Shown in pieces: positions 4,568-47,830 of a stretch of 64,000 bases of DNA (the first letter of the stretch is position 1; each line of letters opens with the position of its first letter). The DNA comes from a virus (lineage: Duplodnaviria; Caudoviricetes), in IMG/VR virus record IMGVR_UViG_3300021254_000020, positions 128,001-192,000 of that record; one strand, written 5' to 3'. Made by a program: the position numbers and the translations under genes. The notes beneath the pieces are model-generated. The model did not search any database. It saw nothing but the letters and a program-made list of their open reading frames with translations, and was not told the origin of the DNA.

Positions 4568-4591
4568 AGTATAACTCCTTTCTATATCAAT

Positions 4592-4604
4592 TTACACTGT
4601 TGTC
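4592..4604 (-). promoter_or_regulatory. late-type promoter motif NACA-N6-TA (1 of about 10 copies)
   Basis: minus-strand copies near 4593,5231,7249,7602,20383,23677,28415,34040,41955 and plus-strand copy 54373-54384, each shortly upstream of an RBS; resembles AR9 nvRNAP consensus AACA-N6-TA. Confidence 0.6.
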
Positions 4605-29257: not shown

Positions 29258-31627
29258 TTAGTATACTATCATGACCTTATTTACGTCAGCAAACATTTTC
29301 TTACCAGTATCAACAGTAGATCCTATCTTGAATCCACTAACTGGGAATTCTTTCTGACTTCTTCCTTCTCTTACTACCAATTTAGCATCAGGAGTACAAG
29401 TCCAGATTGTATGGATAGTATCTCCTTTAGTTAACTTGATAACAGATATACCAGCTCTTCCTCTATTAACTCTACCAATATGGTCTAATGGTAATCTATT
29501 AACATAACCATTCTTGGTTACTACTACCATATCAGTCATCTTAGGTAAGATGAAATTCATACCACTAATAATAGTGGAAGCAGTAGATACTCTATTACCT
29601 TTGGTAGCTCTTCTCAGATAAGGAACTTCTTTTGGATTCAAACGGATAACTTTGTTGGATGTATACAACATGATATCCATTTTGCTTGGTCCAAATAATA
29701 CAGAGTTAACATGATCTCCTTCATCTACTCTTGCATATATAATGCCAGAGGTTGGGGCATTGATCACATCATCTATATCTATCTTCTTAATATAACCTTG
29801 ATTAGTTACTGTGAAGATGAAGTTCTTACTCTTACCCTTAGAAGTATCTGCTAAGTTCTTAAGAGTAGTTTCTCTAGCAGCCCCAATGATATTAGTAGTA
29901 CAATATTTATTCAATACTCGTACATCAGTACCATCACTGCTAGGTTCAGATAACGGTATTTTATGAACTGGTACTTTGAATGCTTTTCCTAGAGCACTGA
30001 AGAGAACAATATCTTCAGCATTATCTGCTACTAAGACTAGATTCACTTTACCCATCTGAGATGGTGGAACCATATCATTCACATTCATTTTCTTAATATA
30101 GTTATTAGTCATAATAACCATTTTAAACATACCAGGAGCTATACCCTTAATCTGATTCGGAGATACTAAGACACATTTCTTGGAATCATTATACTTAGCC
30201 TTGATATCCAGCATCTCTTTAATAATAACCTCGTCAATCTGCTTGGGATCTAACAGAATCTTCATAATCTGTTTAATCTCTTCATTATAGGCTTTCATCC
30301 TTTCCTGACACTGTTTCAGATATCCAGCAGATAATTCAGGCAAGGTTACTCTACTCATGAAACGTGCTTGTACTGGAGACATATTGAATTTCTTCATGAA
30401 GAATTCTATAATCTCCGATTTATCATGTGACTTAGATTTTCTGATTAGCTTAATTAATTGATCAATCTTACCAGACGTCAATAGCATGATATATAATTCA
30501 GTTTCATGAATCTTGGTCTTAAGAGTCTGTAGTTTGGCATTGAGCTTACGGAAGATACTCATTCTTCTAAAGTCAATAAACCCTAACAGATATTCTCTAT
30601 AGCCCATAGTAGCCAAGTTATTATTCTTGATAACGATCAAGTTAACCTGTCTAGTCTGACGTATATTAGTATTAGTATAGAGGAACTCTCTAACGAAGTT
30701 GGGATCAGTACCCTTCTTGAGCACAATAATCTCTTCAAAGTTGTATAGTCTAGGAATCCTCTTATCTACACCAGATCTAGATATTACGTCGACTATAAAT
30801 GGCATTTTACCATTCTTAGCCAGTTCCTTAATACGTTCATCAATCTTATAATAGAAGGTGAAGTCTGGAAGTGATCTTACAATAAGACACGGTTTCCCAT
30901 CATATTCTCCTATATCTATTATACCTTGAGCTACATAAGTACCATAGCCGGTTTCGTTTATCTTATTCCAATCAGTATCCATGATTTCACATGGCATACA
31001 TTCATCAGGAATGAGAGTAAACTTGGCTTTAGGATTACGCATCAGTTTAATGGTAACATCAATTACATCTCCTAGATTATGACTAGGAATAGTAGTTTTG
31101 ATACCAACACCAATACCCATCTGACCTAGGATTAGTAGTACTGGAATTTTAGCAGGTAAGTATACTGGTTCCATGCACTTATTATCATAGTTACTCATCC
31201 AGTCAGTAGCACGTTTATCCTCTTTGATATCATTGATGAAAACATCCATAGCGAATTGGGATATTTTACATTCATTATATCGAGGCTGTGCAGCATATGG
31301 ATCAACCTTAGTACCCCATGAACCACTACCCTCCATGGTAGGATATTTTGTACTAAAGTCATTTATCATATTTCTTATAGCTGAGTTTACACCAGCATCA
31401 CCATGTGGGTTATACTTACGCATAACCTGACCAACTATGTTAGCAGTCTTGATAAACCCTTGGCCACCAAAGTCATTAGCAGCACACCATAGGATCTTTC
31501 TTATTACTGGTTTGCACCCATCTATAAAATCTGGAATAGCTCTGTCTCTAGCTACATAGATAGCATAAGCTTGGCTATCATCTCTTGCTTGGACAGCAAG
31601 ATTAACATCAACTAGTTTCTCTGCCAT
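29258..31627 (-). CDS. gyrA: type IIA topoisomerase subunit A (GyrA/ParC-like) with C-terminal pinwheel domain
   Basis: RAIPDFIDGCKPVIRKIL, YNPHGD, AAQPRY catalytic Tyr, TIPSHNL, repeated VT.xGY.KR blades. Confidence 0.92.
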   Translation of the reverse strand: MAEKLVDVNLAVQARDDSQAYAIYVARDRAIPDFIDGCKPVIRKILWCAANDFGGQGFIKTANIVGQVMRKYNPHGDAGVNSAIRNMINDFSTKYPTMEGSGSWGTKVDPYAAQPRYNECKISQFAMDVFINDIKEDKRATDWMSNYDNKCMEPVYLPAKIPVLLILGQMGIGVGIKTTIPSHNLGDVIDVTIKLMRNPKAKFTLIPDECMPCEIMDTDWNKINETGYGTYVAQGIIDIGEYDGKPCLIVRSLPDFTFYYKIDERIKELAKNGKMPFIVDVISRSGVDKRIPRLYNFEEIIVLKKGTDPNFVREFLYTNTNIRQTRQVNLIVIKNNNLATMGYREYLLGFIDFRRMSIFRKLNAKLQTLKTKIHETELYIMLLTSGKIDQLIKLIRKSKSHDKSEIIEFFMKKFNMSPVQARFMSRVTLPELSAGYLKQCQERMKAYNEEIKQIMKILLDPKQIDEVIIKEMLDIKAKYNDSKKCVLVSPNQIKGIAPGMFKMVIMTNNYIKKMNVNDMVPPSQMGKVNLVLVADNAEDIVLFSALGKAFKVPVHKIPLSEPSSDGTDVRVLNKYCTTNIIGAARETTLKNLADTSKGKSKNFIFTVTNQGYIKKIDIDDVINAPTSGIIYARVDEGDHVNSVLFGPSKMDIMLYTSNKVIRLNPKEVPYLRRATKGNRVSTASTIISGMNFILPKMTDMVVVTKNGYVNRLPLDHIGRVNRGRAGISVIKLTKGDTIHTIWTCTPDAKLVVREGRSQKEFPVSGFKIGSTVDTGKKMFADVNKVMIVY

Positions 31628-32398: not shown

Positions 32399-33823
32399 TT
32401 AAAGATTAGGTAGCTTGGTCCCTAAATCAATATCTGGCCCTAGATGGTTATCATTTGGGCGGAGCCGAGCATATTTAAACATCTTGATGTTTCCTAGAGC
32501 ATTATGCATAAACTCCTTATCAATGTATACCACGAAATGAATCTCTGTAGAGGTCAAAGGTTCAGTAAAGGTTAACTTCATATTCTCCCAATCAATAGCT
32601 ACTTGGATATAATCTACCCAGTTAAATGCCATTATATTAATGAATCTAGATGGAGATATGGCATTGGCTTTAGTGGCATCTATAACTTCTCTTAATTCGT
32701 TGATGAATATTGGATCTATATCTATAGTTACTGGCTGTTTATTATTGAATGCTTCCATCTCTTCTTTAGTAGATAATTCATACTTAGACCTAAATTCCCA
32801 AGGCCATCCATGCTCATCTACTGCAGGAATATTGGCTAAAGTAGTGATACCGAACAAGAACGATTTAGTATCCAATACAGTATAGGATTCCAAATGCTCC
32901 CTCTGTATTAGAGAGTAGTATGCAAAGAACTTGAGATATGGGAAGAACACCTCACAAGTGAAATTTACTCCAAAATCATTATATATCATATTTCTCTGCT
33001 GACCTTGTTGTTTCTGTATTCTAGAGGTTCTGATATGAATCCTACACCTAGGGATTCTCAAGAAGAATTCCATATTACCAGTAGCTTCATTGAACTTATA
33101 CATCAATGCTAGTTTACTTCTCATATTGAAGTAATGTAGCATATCATTAACCTCATACATACCGTCTTCATTACATAGACCTGCATCACAAGCTACTTGG
33201 CCGATAAGCTCATGAGGTATAGGATAATCTATATCTATATAGTTCTTTTGACTACCTCCTCCTCTAAATGCCATATCACATAGAGCAAATACGTCATCTT
33301 GAACTGATTTGGTAGATACATGGATATTGAATCCGAACTCCATTCTAACTTCTCCAAAGGCTAGAGATATATAAGTATTATGTTCTCGATCAATAAAAAA
33401 AGCATCTCTATAATTACATCTATTATTGTATAAGGTTAGACCTAGATTATATAGGTCTATATTGCTACGATTGTATTCAGTGTCCTCATCTACTGTAATA
33501 TGAGCAGATGGTTTATTCGTCTTAATCAGTTCTCTCATAGTATATCTCTGAGTCTGATCATGAATGTGAGATAAATCTAAGTATTTATGCTTAAAGAAGT
33601 TCTTTGGGAATCTCTTATAGAACCAGTTATTCATGTATTGTATAGCAAGACTATATGACTGATATAGCTGGGCTACTATGAGATTGGTTTTGAGCTTATG
33701 GTTCTGCGTTTTCTTTACTTCTATCGGTAGTCCCTTGGTTACTCCAAATCTCTCGAGAACTTCTCGATTAGATAATACCTTTACGTATCTTCCTGGCTGA
33801 TGATTTTCCATTTGCATCTTCAC
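32399..33823 (-). CDS. hypothetical protein, probable virion structural
   Basis: 474 aa in late-promoter operon. Confidence 0.6.
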   Translation of the reverse strand: MKMQMENHQPGRYVKVLSNREVLERFGVTKGLPIEVKKTQNHKLKTNLIVAQLYQSYSLAIQYMNNWFYKRFPKNFFKHKYLDLSHIHDQTQRYTMRELIKTNKPSAHITVDEDTEYNRSNIDLYNLGLTLYNNRCNYRDAFFIDREHNTYISLAFGEVRMEFGFNIHVSTKSVQDDVFALCDMAFRGGGSQKNYIDIDYPIPHELIGQVACDAGLCNEDGMYEVNDMLHYFNMRSKLALMYKFNEATGNMEFFLRIPRCRIHIRTSRIQKQQGQQRNMIYNDFGVNFTCEVFFPYLKFFAYYSLIQREHLESYTVLDTKSFLFGITTLANIPAVDEHGWPWEFRSKYELSTKEEMEAFNNKQPVTIDIDPIFINELREVIDATKANAISPSRFINIMAFNWVDYIQVAIDWENMKLTFTEPLTSTEIHFVVYIDKEFMHNALGNIKMFKYARLRPNDNHLGPDIDLGTKLPNL

Positions 33824-36904: not shown

Positions 36905-37035
36905 TTATGTATTTTTACGAAACACAGTCATTTACCATTCAGACAAAAAACGGTTAGAGGGGCATACAAGCCCCTCTTATCAAATATCACCATAATAATA
37001 TATTAATATTATTTTGAAAAATTGCAAAATATTAA

Positions 37036-37641
37036 GGAGTAGGTCATAATGACCTACTCCCTATGAGTATGATTTTATGGGTAAACCTTGTGTATATATA
37101 AAAGAGTTATGGATTGCGTTAGCTACCTTATACCGGTTATCCTCTGCTTCAAACTAGAATAGCAGTAACCCTCTTCGAGTAGCACGGAATTGTAATAAGG
37201 ATTTGGTTTATCAATTTGGCGGGTTATCAGATTGGGCTCGTTAAAAATACTACCAGGTATAAAAATAGTTTTATCAGGTTATCAGTTTAGGTACGTATAT
37301 CAATTTAACGAGTTATCAGTTTAGCCCATTTAAGCATCTTTGTATTTATGTGCTTAATTTGATTGAGGAAATCAATGTGACTCATTGTCCCCATATGAAC
37401 GCTCAGAGGGATTCGAACCCTCGTGATCTTTGCGATCGGAAGATTTTCGGTCTTCTGTGTTTAACCACTCCACCACAAGCGTTAACCATTCTGGTTATGT
37501 ATGAACAGCTTAAAAAGCTGGTGCAATCCTATTAGTCTTTTCTATTACCAAGAGGTAAGAGCATGTGGCCATAAGACATCTCGATTGCATTAGGAAAAGG
37601 CCCTAATTTGATTGAGGTTAATTCAGCCTCGTAATCCATAA
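37036..37641 (-). ncRNA. candidate long structured RNA with AAAYUGAUAA repeats and embedded tRNA
   Basis: no credible ORF; about 6 motif copies 37207-37324; 9-bp inverted repeat 37237-45/37304-12; terminator 37036-60. Confidence 0.55.
37398..37482 (-). tRNA. atypical class II (long variable arm) tRNA, anticodon GAA
   Basis: acceptor ACGCTTG/TGAGCGT, D arm GTG-GAGTGGTTAAA-CAC, anticodon arm GAAGA-CCGAAAA-TCTTC, variable arm GATC-GCAAA-GATC, T arm GAGGG-TTCGAAT-CCCTC; no encoded CCA. Confidence 0.85.
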
Positions 37642-37646
37642 TTACT

Positions 37647-37925
37647 CTAATATATCATTATAGCGTTTCTCAGATACGTATTGGATTTCATCTCTTCGTC
37701 TAGTCTCATTCGCATTGCCTCGATAGCATCATATGCAGTATGTGCACTTATCCATGTGTTTAACATGCTCTGCAATGACTCTGAGAGAATACGTTCCAAT
37801 TCACCAGCAAGTATAGAATCTTTCAGTTTAGGAACGATTTCAACATATAGAGTATGATTTGCTTCATTTATATCTACATAGATATAGTGAAACTCTTCTC
37901 TGTATCTGAATCTGATGCTATTCAT
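37647..37925 (-). CDS. hypothetical protein
   Basis: 92 aa, directly after 243-aa gene. Confidence 0.65.
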   Translation of the reverse strand: MNSIRFRYREEFHYIYVDINEANHTLYVEIVPKLKDSILAGELERILSESLQSMLNTWISAHTAYDAIEAMRMRLDEEMKSNTYLRNAIMIY

Positions 37926-37927
37926 GA

Positions 37928-38659
37928 TTAATAATCAATCTCTACTTTAGTAGAAGCATTAGCTTCACTAATAATAGAGTCGATCCGAACAATGTAATCG
38001 TTGATTGCATTGTAGTATTTCTGAATAGCGTTGTTGTTGACAAAATCATGAGGATCGATACGAATGATCTCTACAAGAGCTTCTTCTTTAGCACGTTCCT
38101 CATTATATTTATCTTGGCTCCAAGACTGTTTGCTGTCAGAGGGGAACTTACGTTCCATCTGATCTGCAACTTCTCTCTTAGCCCGATTCTCGTATTCAGC
38201 TCTCTCTTTCAAATCAGCAGTAAGAGTATTGAGAAGAGCATTAGCGAGACTCTTGAGCGGGTAATCCGTGTTATCGTAGCCAGTTTTGTTGGCGCGACCT
38301 TTATAGTTGTTCTTACGATTAATAGCCTCAGCGATAGTGATTTCTTCTTCTCCTACCTCTTTACCATTAATCAGATCACGGAAGTTAGGTTCACAAGGAA
38401 CTGTAACCAATGTGTTGTGATTGGCATGAGTATGTGCCTTCTTGAGAGCACTCAGTCGAGCCATCAGATCAGTGAATTGCTGGAACTGTTCTTTCTGATG
38501 ATTGGTCTGTTCTTCTAGAGAACGAGGACCAACATACTGGCTGTTTTTCAGGCACCAGGTTACAAATCGAAAATCATTTGATTTAATCAGATTAATGATT
38601 TGTACCTTTACTGATTTTTCCTCTGCCAGAACCTGAGTAAGTGTTAGTTCTTCGTGCAT
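37928..38659 (-). CDS. coiled-coil protein resembling DIP1984/septicolysin-like family
   Basis: TLTQVLAE.K, AN..T.V, TIAEAINRK, IDP, ID..ISEANASTKVEIDY. Confidence 0.6.
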   Translation of the reverse strand: MHEELTLTQVLAEEKSVKVQIINLIKSNDFRFVTWCLKNSQYVGPRSLEEQTNHQKEQFQQFTDLMARLSALKKAHTHANHNTLVTVPCEPNFRDLINGKEVGEEEITIAEAINRKNNYKGRANKTGYDNTDYPLKSLANALLNTLTADLKERAEYENRAKREVADQMERKFPSDSKQSWSQDKYNEERAKEEALVEIIRIDPHDFVNNNAIQKYYNAINDYIVRIDSIISEANASTKVEIDY

Positions 38660-38713
38660 GATTCTACCTCCATTACTTATCAGTTTAGTGTATATTAAAA
38701 TCTAATTTAGCCG

Positions 38714-46114: not shown

Positions 46115-46654
46115 ATATGAATAGGTAGAGACCATGATATTATCTCATCTCTTTCCCCTCATTCGAACGCAGCAAGCGACTTTCATCGCACTACGCTTTC
46201 CATCGAGTATTATCCCGACTAGAGACCATTCCTCCATTCCCGTTACAGGAACTTCTTAGGTTCGATCTCCGCTTTTCAGCATAGGTTAAGATGCTTATCT
46301 CCATATGGTTTCGTCATCAATCTAAATCGACCTATACCTTTCTTTCGTTCAGATAGACCTATCATTACATACATATCCTTAGGTGCCTACTTTATCTATA
46401 TATACCTAGATAGTACCTGTAATACTATATGGGTGTTCTCAACTGCCACCTTACTAACCCACAATACATATAGATTTTAATAGTAGATTCGTGTCCCTCA
46501 CCATAGATATCTTATTGACTCCCGGTTTGTTCAACCGACTTTACCGAGCTACTAACCCTGATCTTTACAATCAACGCTAGTCGGAGATTAGAGGAGATAC
46601 TTCTAGGCGTTACCCTATCATTTTATCTCTCGGTCTACCCACACAAAATCGCAC
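46115..46654 (-). mobile_element. ORF-less group II intron (IIB-like), 540 nt
   Basis: 5' GTGCG; EBS1 GGCAGT (46447-42) pairs exon ATTGCC; domain V AGCGTAGTGCGAT-GAAA-GTCGCTTGCTGCGTT; domain VI with bulged A 46122, 8 nt from terminal AT; removal restores frame. Confidence 0.92.
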
Positions 46655-46716: not shown

Positions 46717-47830
46717 ATGAACGTACATTACTAAGACTACAGTATTATTATAAACACATCATAATCTAAGGTTGTTATTACCCTTTTCGGTAAACCCTCT
46801 ATATAATTCAGGATAGTTCTTGGTTATATTTTTAAAGGTTCTTCCAGTTCTTATAAAGCTCAAACTAGTTATGAACTTCTTATCATATGGAACTCCAAGA
46901 GCATTGGCTATCTGCATAGAATCCCTTCCAGCTACCATCATCTGGCATATTCTATCAACCGTAGAACCATCCCAAGTGTATCCCGATATATCATAATCCT
47001 TAGATATAGATTTCCATCGTTTTCCTGTTCTAATATCAGAAACCAGAGCAGCAAAATTCATATTATATGGAACTCCAACAATCTTAGCTATATCTGGTGA
47101 TTCCATACCTTGAGTAAGACATTGACAAATCGTATGAATCATCTTATATTTTTCAGCATTTTTGTTTACTGATACTATATGATAATTCTTTGCAATATCT
47201 TTCCAAGCAGTACCATTTCTGATATTGCTAATTAGAACTATCCATCGTCTATCATAAGGTACACCAAATTTTTCTGCTACTTGTTTAGAACTAATATTTG
47301 GATCCTCTAGCATTTGACAAATAGCATGCTTCATCTCTAATGGGAAATTAAAGATATGATCTCTATTTACATCATCGCTCAAAGAATACAACACATTATT
47401 CTGATAATCGGTCCACATAAGATTATCGAGTTTATTATGATATTTTACCTCATCTTTATGATGAACTAACTGACCATAATATGGATCCGATGTATCAGTA
47501 AGAAAAGTAATGGCTACCATTCTATGAACAAGCATCATAGCATCTTCTAATCTGCATCTAAGATATCCTTCCGGTAAAGATACTGGGTATATTTTCATCT
47601 GAGTAACCCTATCATATACGTTTCCGTAATTACTAACCAGATATCTCGGATTTAGTGGGAATATCCTAAATTCCTCATTAAGATAATATCCTAAAGTAAG
47701 AGCTCCATTAGAATAATCACTGGCTTTGTATTTATCTTGATTTTCTGCACCTGGTATAAATTCTTCCATTATATCACCTCCTTTACTATATGATTATAAA
47801 TTAACTGTAGTCTTAGTAATGTACGTTCAT
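46717..47830. repeat. 27-bp perfect inverted repeat looping out the HNH ORF
   Basis: ATGAACGTACATTACTAAGACTACAGT 46717-43 and reverse complement 47804-30. Confidence 0.95.
46759..47769 (-). CDS. intron-encoded HNH homing endonuclease with three C-terminal HTH-like repeats
   Basis: YLVSNYG (NUMOD4-like), VHRMVA.TF, VHHKDE...N..DNL.W; 3x ICQ...IA...GVPY......S.IR.G..W/F. Confidence 0.9.
   Translation of the reverse strand: MEEFIPGAENQDKYKASDYSNGALTLGYYLNEEFRIFPLNPRYLVSNYGNVYDRVTQMKIYPVSLPEGYLRCRLEDAMMLVHRMVAITFLTDTSDPYYGQLVHHKDEVKYHNKLDNLMWTDYQNNVLYSLSDDVNRDHIFNFPLEMKHAICQMLEDPNISSKQVAEKFGVPYDRRWIVLISNIRNGTAWKDIAKNYHIVSVNKNAEKYKMIHTICQCLTQGMESPDIAKIVGVPYNMNFAALVSDIRTGKRWKSISKDYDISGYTWDGSTVDRICQMMVAGRDSMQIANALGVPYDKKFITSLSFIRTGRTFKNITKNYPELYRGFTEKGNNNLRL

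Follow-up and report, generated by a model that had tools for sequence, protein, structure and literature searches.

A DIP1984-fold protein gene and a downstream covarying RNA with tRNA mimics: a candidate autoregulated ribonucleoprotein locus of a large rumen phage

In a large rumen phage, the gene of a 243-aa helical protein is followed by a conserved, covarying RNA which carries a periodic array of short units and mimics of tRNAs. The locus might encode a two-part, autoregulated phage ribonucleoprotein displaying tRNA decoys against host anticodon nucleases, a reading of the sequence that we put forward tentatively. The stretch of DNA analysed (64,000 nucleotides, hereafter the window) covers positions 128,001 to 192,000 of the virus record IMGVR_UViG_3300021254_000020, which is 266,420 bases long with 36% G+C. 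The records with an identical protein and the RNA runs originated from animal gut, one of them being labelled sheep gut. The features of the locus are collected in Table 1.

Table 1. Features of the protein–RNA locus (window coordinates)
Feature	Position	Strand	Basis or remark
Gene of the 243-aa helical protein, DIP1984 (3KDQ) fold, PHROG 1491	37928-38659	-	profile and structure searches
Leader copy of the repeat	38677-38688	-	putative autoregulatory site
GGAGG (RBS) of the 243-aa gene	38671-38667	-	
92-aa ORF, no family, between gene and RNA	37647-37925	-	
Structured non-coding RNA, 535 nt	37107-37641	-	fold z -4.9 for 36940-37650
Extended -10-like element directly before the RNA	37649-37657	-	read from the sequence
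Closing helix, 5' strand	37625-37641	-	37641-37630 pairs with 37118-37107; 37628-37625 pairs with 37124-37121
5' strands of two probable pseudoknots	37594-37602	-	covariation
5' domain helices	37522-37589	-	37589-37583/37528-37522 and 37577-37573/37539-37535
Free anticodon-stem-loop look-alike	37506-37520	-	middle triplet UUU
tRNA-like domain	37398-37482	-	Rfam 49.9 bits; ARAGORN; cloverleaf with D and T loops
Array of ten 8-nt units, two blocks	37203-37323	-	putative protein binding track
3' core	37107-37204	-	AAAUC landmark, helix 37200-37195/37131-37126, purine core, hairpin 37165-37144, closing-helix 3' strand
Terminator-like hairpin	37033-37063	-	longest RNA contig ends at 37069

The locus lies near genes for gyrase and ribonucleotide reductase. 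On the minus strand, the module is followed by the gene of a 470-aa conserved protein without a Pfam family (32399-33823) and by the gyrase A gene (29258-31627); this order recurs in three related loci (L001, L002, L007), and ribonucleotide reductase precedes the module. The initial annotation, made from the letters of the window, had described a non-coding, terminator-ended region of about 600 nt after the gene. The terminator-like hairpin was found, but the RNA delimited by its closing helix has 535 nt, and in the strain group of the window the 92-aa ORF intervenes between it and the gene. This ORF is confined to that group and is not part of the module, because relatives with a 97% or 77% identical protein lack it. 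Its stop overlaps the -10-like element of the RNA. In L042-L046 this element has the consensus hexamer. It may be the RNA's own promoter, with a start near 37642; scanning for sigma-70 promoters gave none where the RNA begins. Further downstream, at 36956-37000 (minus strand), a -10-like element, a G+C hairpin and a U run precede the next gene; a similar arrangement recurs in L001, L002, L004 and L007 and could represent a promoter or attenuator module of the phages. Elsewhere in the window, Rfam recognized group II intron domains (46115-46200 and 46511-46646, minus strand), adjoined by a 336-aa ORF (46759-47769) with the look of an HNH/helix-turn-helix homing endonuclease.

The 243-aa protein has 30 close relatives, and the profile search extended the set to 1,101 cluster representatives. 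It matched the PHROG 1491 profile (E 4e-17), and the gene was found in more than 700 sequenced phage records, T5-like phages included. The scan of viral contigs with the single protein returned nothing, and the prokaryote genome contigs scanned contained no close relative. Neither Pfam nor NCBIfam gave a family match for the protein, nor a DIP1984/DUF6847 match for it or 26 relatives, and the PDB sequence search gave none for the protein itself. The structure model is helical (pLDDT 85.9), and its best match in both structure searches was DIP1984 (3KDQ), the resemblance proposed earlier: Foldseek gave a probability of 1.00 (E 0.003), and VIA-align gave Z 11.3 with 150 of 152 residues aligned (runner-up 7.3), a modest score for a helical protein at a superposition rmsd of 7.6 and 16-17% identity. 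Uncharacterised phage proteins were matched as well. As modelled, the protein is a remote relative of DIP1984 and not a member of its family by HMM. It is acidic overall (pI 5.6), a point against the ribonucleoprotein proposed below. A prediction of a four-copy complex scored 0.23 against a mark of 0.42 and carries no weight either way. The initial annotation had also likened the protein to septicolysin. This likeness was dropped, as the protein is small and helical and no cholesterol-dependent cytolysin domain was matched in Pfam or NCBIfam. The 'tail fiber' label of PHROG 1491 was likewise rejected: the model is helical, the neighbours are nucleotide-metabolism genes or tRNAs, and nothing supports a fibre or a tail module.

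Downstream of the gene lies a conserved RNA with a covarying structure. Wherever a homologous locus extends far enough, a gene-free stretch closed by a long-range helix follows the stop, as expected of the downstream RNA that the initial annotation had anticipated in homologs, and the layout of gene and RNA is the same in 19 close and 15 distant loci. On a MAFFT alignment of 16 loci, 97.6% of the cells of the closing helix were paired, and 10 of its 15 pairs had changed on both sides. On the same alignment the whole RNA structure beat 500 shuffles and all slid controls, which leave relatedness in; the inner helices were just 62-83% paired on the plain MAFFT alignment. With local registers, four helices paired better between strands of one locus than with strands taken from other loci (p 5e-5). 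The RNA is probably doubly knotted, judging from covariation. The 5' pseudoknot (37602-37599 with the loop 37570-37567) kept four of four pairs in eight loci, with double changes, and the long-range one (37600-37594 with the conserved purine core 37176-37170) is weaker (permutation p 0.034); two bases are claimed by both in the strain of the window. An alternative pairing, in which the 3' end of the purine core joins the bases that precede the closing helix, was set aside on visual inspection, as the extension of the closing helix covaries better. The 5' domain is conserved in the nearer subgroup only. One repeat copy had been described as bulged from a helix, and this helix is predicted here (most pairs p 0.6-0.99) but is not conserved: nine of nine pairs form in L042 only, seven in L006 and at most six elsewhere, about the level of slid partners. 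Rfam found nothing on the RNA but the internal tRNA, with no match to Y RNA, GOLLD or ROOL. A scan of viral contigs with a 16-base RNA core gave 31 matches, 29 of them by chance.

The repeat that had drawn attention to the locus is a 12-mer, present exactly at 38677-38688, 37313-37324 and 37279-37290, all on the minus strand; the three reported positions were confirmed. Exact copies in the 266-kb genome number three, against 0.14 expected. Near-copies reported around 37207, 37223 and 37271 correspond to two-mismatch variants at 37208-37219, 37224-37235 and 37271-37282, and a further unit starts at 37307. Across the window, matches with two mismatches are at chance level (19 versus 15.3), and the signal is in the exact copies and their clustering, not in the two-mismatch count. 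The 12-nt copies are real, but the true unit is 8 nt long and belongs to a periodic array with unit starts at 37323, 37315, 37307, 37289, 37281 and 37273 in one block and 37234, 37226, 37218 and 37210 in the other. The units are A/U-rich 8-mers without GGA. The best lag was 8 in 16 of the 19 close loci (which are not all independent), 9 in two and 10 in one, and 7 in 13 of the 15 distant loci, phage G and T5-like phages being among these. The closing helix, the array, the AAAUC landmark and the helix that follows this landmark (five of five pairs in 13 of 14 distant loci) are common to the two groups, whose RNAs are therefore one plan with two pitches, 7 and 8 nt. The module of phage Jenst is flanked by skipping-rope and BsrG RNAs (L087:2125-2202, 2660-2934), and a drum RNA follows the module in phage D-1873 (L088:2910-3017).

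The third exact copy lies in the leader of the 243-aa gene, 5 nt before the GGAGG. In likeness to the array, this leader ranked first among the 232 leaders of the genome. The second, that of a 123-aa ORF (4568-4600, minus strand), has an A/T-rich stretch of 12 bases in common with the array, maybe by chance. Over the family, 17 of 26 loci had an own leader that outscored its neighbours (6.8 expected), and the own leader fitted the array of its own locus better than those of other loci (p 0.0002 in each group), a matching to which shared ancestry and base composition contribute. The leader unit passed the shuffle test in 13 of 29 loci and is weak or absent in about half. Such a pattern would be expected of a protein that recognizes the unit and restrains its own translation. 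The autoregulated RNA–protein module predicted in the initial annotation thus gained from a leader copy that is specific and tracks its own array.

The same arrangement, a single unit by the RBS and ten along the RNA, could arise if the protein were a translational regulator of phage genes, titrated by the RNA as by the sponge considered in the initial annotation, with the tRNA parts setting only processing or stability of the RNA. We consider this unlikely. A possible target was seen outside the window, where a cluster of similar units (genome 6411-6470, minus strand) follows the stop of a 68-aa ORF without a family. By a simple count this cluster is the densest in the genome (five units in 60 nt, mean 0.23), and the region of the ORF (genome 6360-6725, minus strand; L041:2860-3225) has a closed fold (z -4.6) with the RBS paired and a unit in a loop. 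The motif used there was, however, chosen after the cluster had been seen, and an 8-mer scan did not place the cluster near the top, though a scan with a shorter core did. The message of the 68-aa ORF may be a target of the 243-aa protein or a type I toxin-style message. Against a sponge, the sole standout among the 232 leaders is that of the gene itself, and titration needs no pseudoknotted core, strict period or exact, fast-changing anticodon loops.

Such loops belong to the tRNA-mimic cargo of the RNA, which is the best clue to its function; the initial annotation had missed both the tRNA-like element and the free anticodon hairpin. The tRNA-like domain has a long variable arm, C33 instead of U33 and no encoded CCA, and it presents the anticodon GAA (Phe) on a long-arm body of the Ser/Leu type. 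In strains with an identical protein its triplet is GAA or UUA (UGA in the next relatives), and that of the free hairpin is UUU, GCU or GUU. Twelve RNA sites vary among these strains, six of them within the 14 anticodon-loop bases of the 535 (nominal p 3e-7, which overstates the enrichment because the loop changes are linked and maybe stem from few recombination events), and the stems of the anticodon hairpins stay fixed. In the close loci, the variable cargo sits between the 5' domain and the array as whole tRNA shapes and free hairpins with 7-base loops; whole tRNA shapes occur in 11 of the 19 loci and none is whole in eight. U33 is often missing from the embedded tRNAs, and loops of 5 or 10 bases occur, which argues against decoding.

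Family-wide, hairpins outside the tRNA shapes were compared, by exact match, with 33 real tRNA anticodon loops from the fetched loci. Ten matched in the sense orientation and none in the antisense one (0.24 expected): three Met, two each of Lys, Tyr and Ser, and one Asn. One free hairpin differs from a real Tyr arm in one base of 17. The free loop of the window's strain has U32 and is not among the 33 real loops; an alternative, longer stem with a 3-base loop can also be drawn. Many distant RNAs have no anticodon-type hairpin, and in T5-like phages the RNA carries such a hairpin, its triplet being CUU (Lys). A looser consensus had been tried and was replaced by the exact match, as it is nearly palindromic and gave 11 hits in each orientation. 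As separate observations, a more distant relative (L037:3178-3626) has a tRNA shape seemingly with its halves in swapped order and a free Ser anticodon hairpin, and a 14-nt exact direct repeat (37604-37617 and 37355-37368) flanks the 5' domain and the tRNA in the window, none being seen in L042 or L044.

Metatranscriptome contigs from four studies lay on the RNA (37111-37621; 37069-37627; 37218-37511; 37092-37397 together with 37479-37636); these give neither strand nor level nor the ends of an RNA, and their depth cannot rank genes. In several studies the contig ends were close to the predicted RNA ends. Most of the flanking DNA and the 92-aa ORF were without contigs in the RNA runs, where holes prove nothing. 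In one run the hole fell exactly over the tRNA-like domain, and two RNA contigs continue through this domain and both flanks. Position 37460, A22 of the tRNA-like domain, was read as G in the RNA contigs of two studies and as A in one, and as A in 12 of 12 DNA records covering it. The methylation m1A22 by TrmK gives such misreads and requires a folded tRNA with a purine at position 13 (PMC9801127), both of which the domain has. The reading of A22 as G fits this modification and would argue for RNA; a strain variant could also account for it.

A modified A22 would suit a different role, in which the tRNA parts supply tRNAs, as on a GOLLD-like carrier, or engage ribosomes, synthetases, T-boxes or modifying enzymes. 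The whole tRNA shapes of the 11 close loci speak for such a role, as does the finding that GOLLD RNAs can embed a tRNA (PMC12990946), and the UUA anticodon of some strains would read ochre stops. The domains with UUA and U33 on a long-arm body (L047, L053, L042, L043 and L016) would do so if released and charged; another (L026) has the opal anticodon UCA. Such a role is nevertheless improbable, somewhat more so than the sponge: besides the missing U33, the odd loops and the CCA not encoded in the window, the anticodon changes while the Ser/Leu-type body does not, whole tRNAs are lacking in eight close loci, and the contigs spanning the domain with both flanks count against it.

The repeats could also be DNA sites (iterons or operators) or chance, in a decayed tRNA spacer. 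The AT-rich genome, the two-mismatch matches at chance level and the DNA that can be present in RNA libraries would allow this, yet we judge it very improbable. The long-range helices show compensatory changes, the tRNA loops are strand-specific, the 8-nt period is unrelated to the DNA helix, and RNA contigs end at the predicted ends. The initial annotation had set transcription against DNA iterons, and the covariation and the contigs in RNA libraries decide that the repeats are not iterons.

For the decoy-bearing particle, the following mechanism is proposed. Several copies of the protein would bind the array, one unit each, coating or holding the RNA, which we consider probable. Spare protein would bind the unit beside its own RBS and block translation, matching protein to RNA; this step seems rather likely. 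More tentatively, the particle could be a stable carrier that shows swappable anticodon loops and tRNA-shaped domains to host anticodon nucleases. The displayed loops and domains would act as decoy substrates or inhibitors, host tRNAs would survive infection, and the loops would change quickly because hosts differ in which tRNAs their nucleases cut. A decoy in an arms race fits because the frame and the protein track are conserved and the anticodon cargo is exact and fast-changing. The tRNAs targeted by PrrC and Retron-Eco7 (PMC11555353) and by PARIS (10.1101/2024.01.02.573894) are those for Lys and Tyr.

Extended to the whole family, the proposal becomes more doubtful: a widespread class of viral ribonucleoproteins in which an oligomer of the DIP1984 fold coats a track of 7- or 8-nt pitch depending on the clade, governs its own synthesis by a single unit at the RBS and carries reprogrammable decoys that beat tRNA-cutting immunity. 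If true, this would be an RNA-based anti-defence retargeted by editing three bases, a first function for DIP1984-like proteins, and an RNA–protein particle with its own repeat code and a decoy-RNA counter to anticodon nucleases. Should the decoy part fail, the RNA would still hold, as would its link with the protein. The gene has so far sat under a wrong 'tail fiber' label, and the RNA is uncatalogued save for an orphan 5' fragment in one relative. No description of the protein–RNA pair was found in the literature searched, which leaves most subscription papers outside, nor one under DIP1984, DUF6847, 3KDQ or anticodon decoys.

DIP1984 of Corynebacterium diphtheriae (3KDQ, DUF6847-type) has the same fold in 152 residues against 243 here, and in the literature searched no RNA partner was described for it. 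The PHROG 1491 proteins of T5-like phages, Bacillus phage G, Bc431v3 and Jenst are homologous to the 243-aa protein, and their RNAs follow the same plan, in which a closing helix, an array, the AAAUC landmark and a 3' helix recur. These RNAs have 280-390 nt and 7-nt units, whereas those of the window's clade are 420-595 nt long, use 8-nt units and additionally have a purine core and tRNA shapes embedded in them. The orphan motif RAGATH-27 (RF03100) matches the first 84 nt of the distant L089 RNA with 77.2 bits (cut-off 76.1); its model of 86 positions has no match to the window RNA up to E 10. In the literature searched (most subscription papers lie outside) we found no paper naming RAGATH-27 and no partner or function described for it.

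Three regulatory or structural systems offer parallels in design. With CsrA/CsrB (RsmA/RsmZ), invoked in the initial annotation, the locus shares the combination of a single site by the RBS with many others in a non-coding RNA, and the leader statistics are compatible with repression by the protein and relief by the RNA. The membership was not upheld: CsrA is a beta-strand dimer of about 60 aa and its sites are GGA hairpin loops, whereas the protein here is a 243-aa helical model without a Pfam match and the sites are contiguous 8-nt units without GGA loops, next to a knotted core and tRNA mimics. In the trp leader RNA, evenly spaced short units bind TRAP, one protein subunit per unit. The similar spacing suggests one subunit per unit here as well; no homology to TRAP was found, and the locus differs in having a separate RNA gene and no known ligand. 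Ro60/Rsr acts with the bacterial Y RNA (YrlA), a closed RNA with a tRNA-like domain encoded beside the protein gene.

A tRNA-like domain inside a closed RNA is present here too. In a Ro60-like role the particle would handle or sense broken tRNAs, together with RNA repair or decay enzymes. The Y RNA plan of oligomeric protein and closed RNA and the position of distant loci in tRNA clusters are compatible with such damage control, which we regard as slightly less probable still than tRNA supply. The adjacent protein has neither the Ro60 (TROVE) Pfam match nor its fold, the RNA does not match Y RNA and adds a repeat array and free anticodon hairpins, and the neighbours are ribonucleotide reductase and gyrase; the close loci that were fetched showed no repair gene.

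GOLLD and ROOL are likewise large phage RNAs tied to tRNAs and form RNA-only multimers (PMC12286853), but they have no fixed protein gene or periodic array, and neither has an Rfam match here. The phage tRNAs that counter PrrC, Retron-Eco7 and PARIS are of the same species, Lys and Tyr, and are also phage-encoded (PMC11555353; 10.1101/2024.01.02.573894). Known escape from PrrC and Retron-Eco7 relies on working tRNAs, which replace the cut pool, and not on decoys (PMC11555353), whereas here a scaffold bears the loops, many of which are unable to decode. Altogether, the locus recalls CsrA/CsrB by its logic, TRAP by its spacing and Ro60/Y RNA by its plan, belongs to neither the CsrA/CsrB nor the Ro60/Y RNA system, and looks like an undescribed protein–RNA particle.
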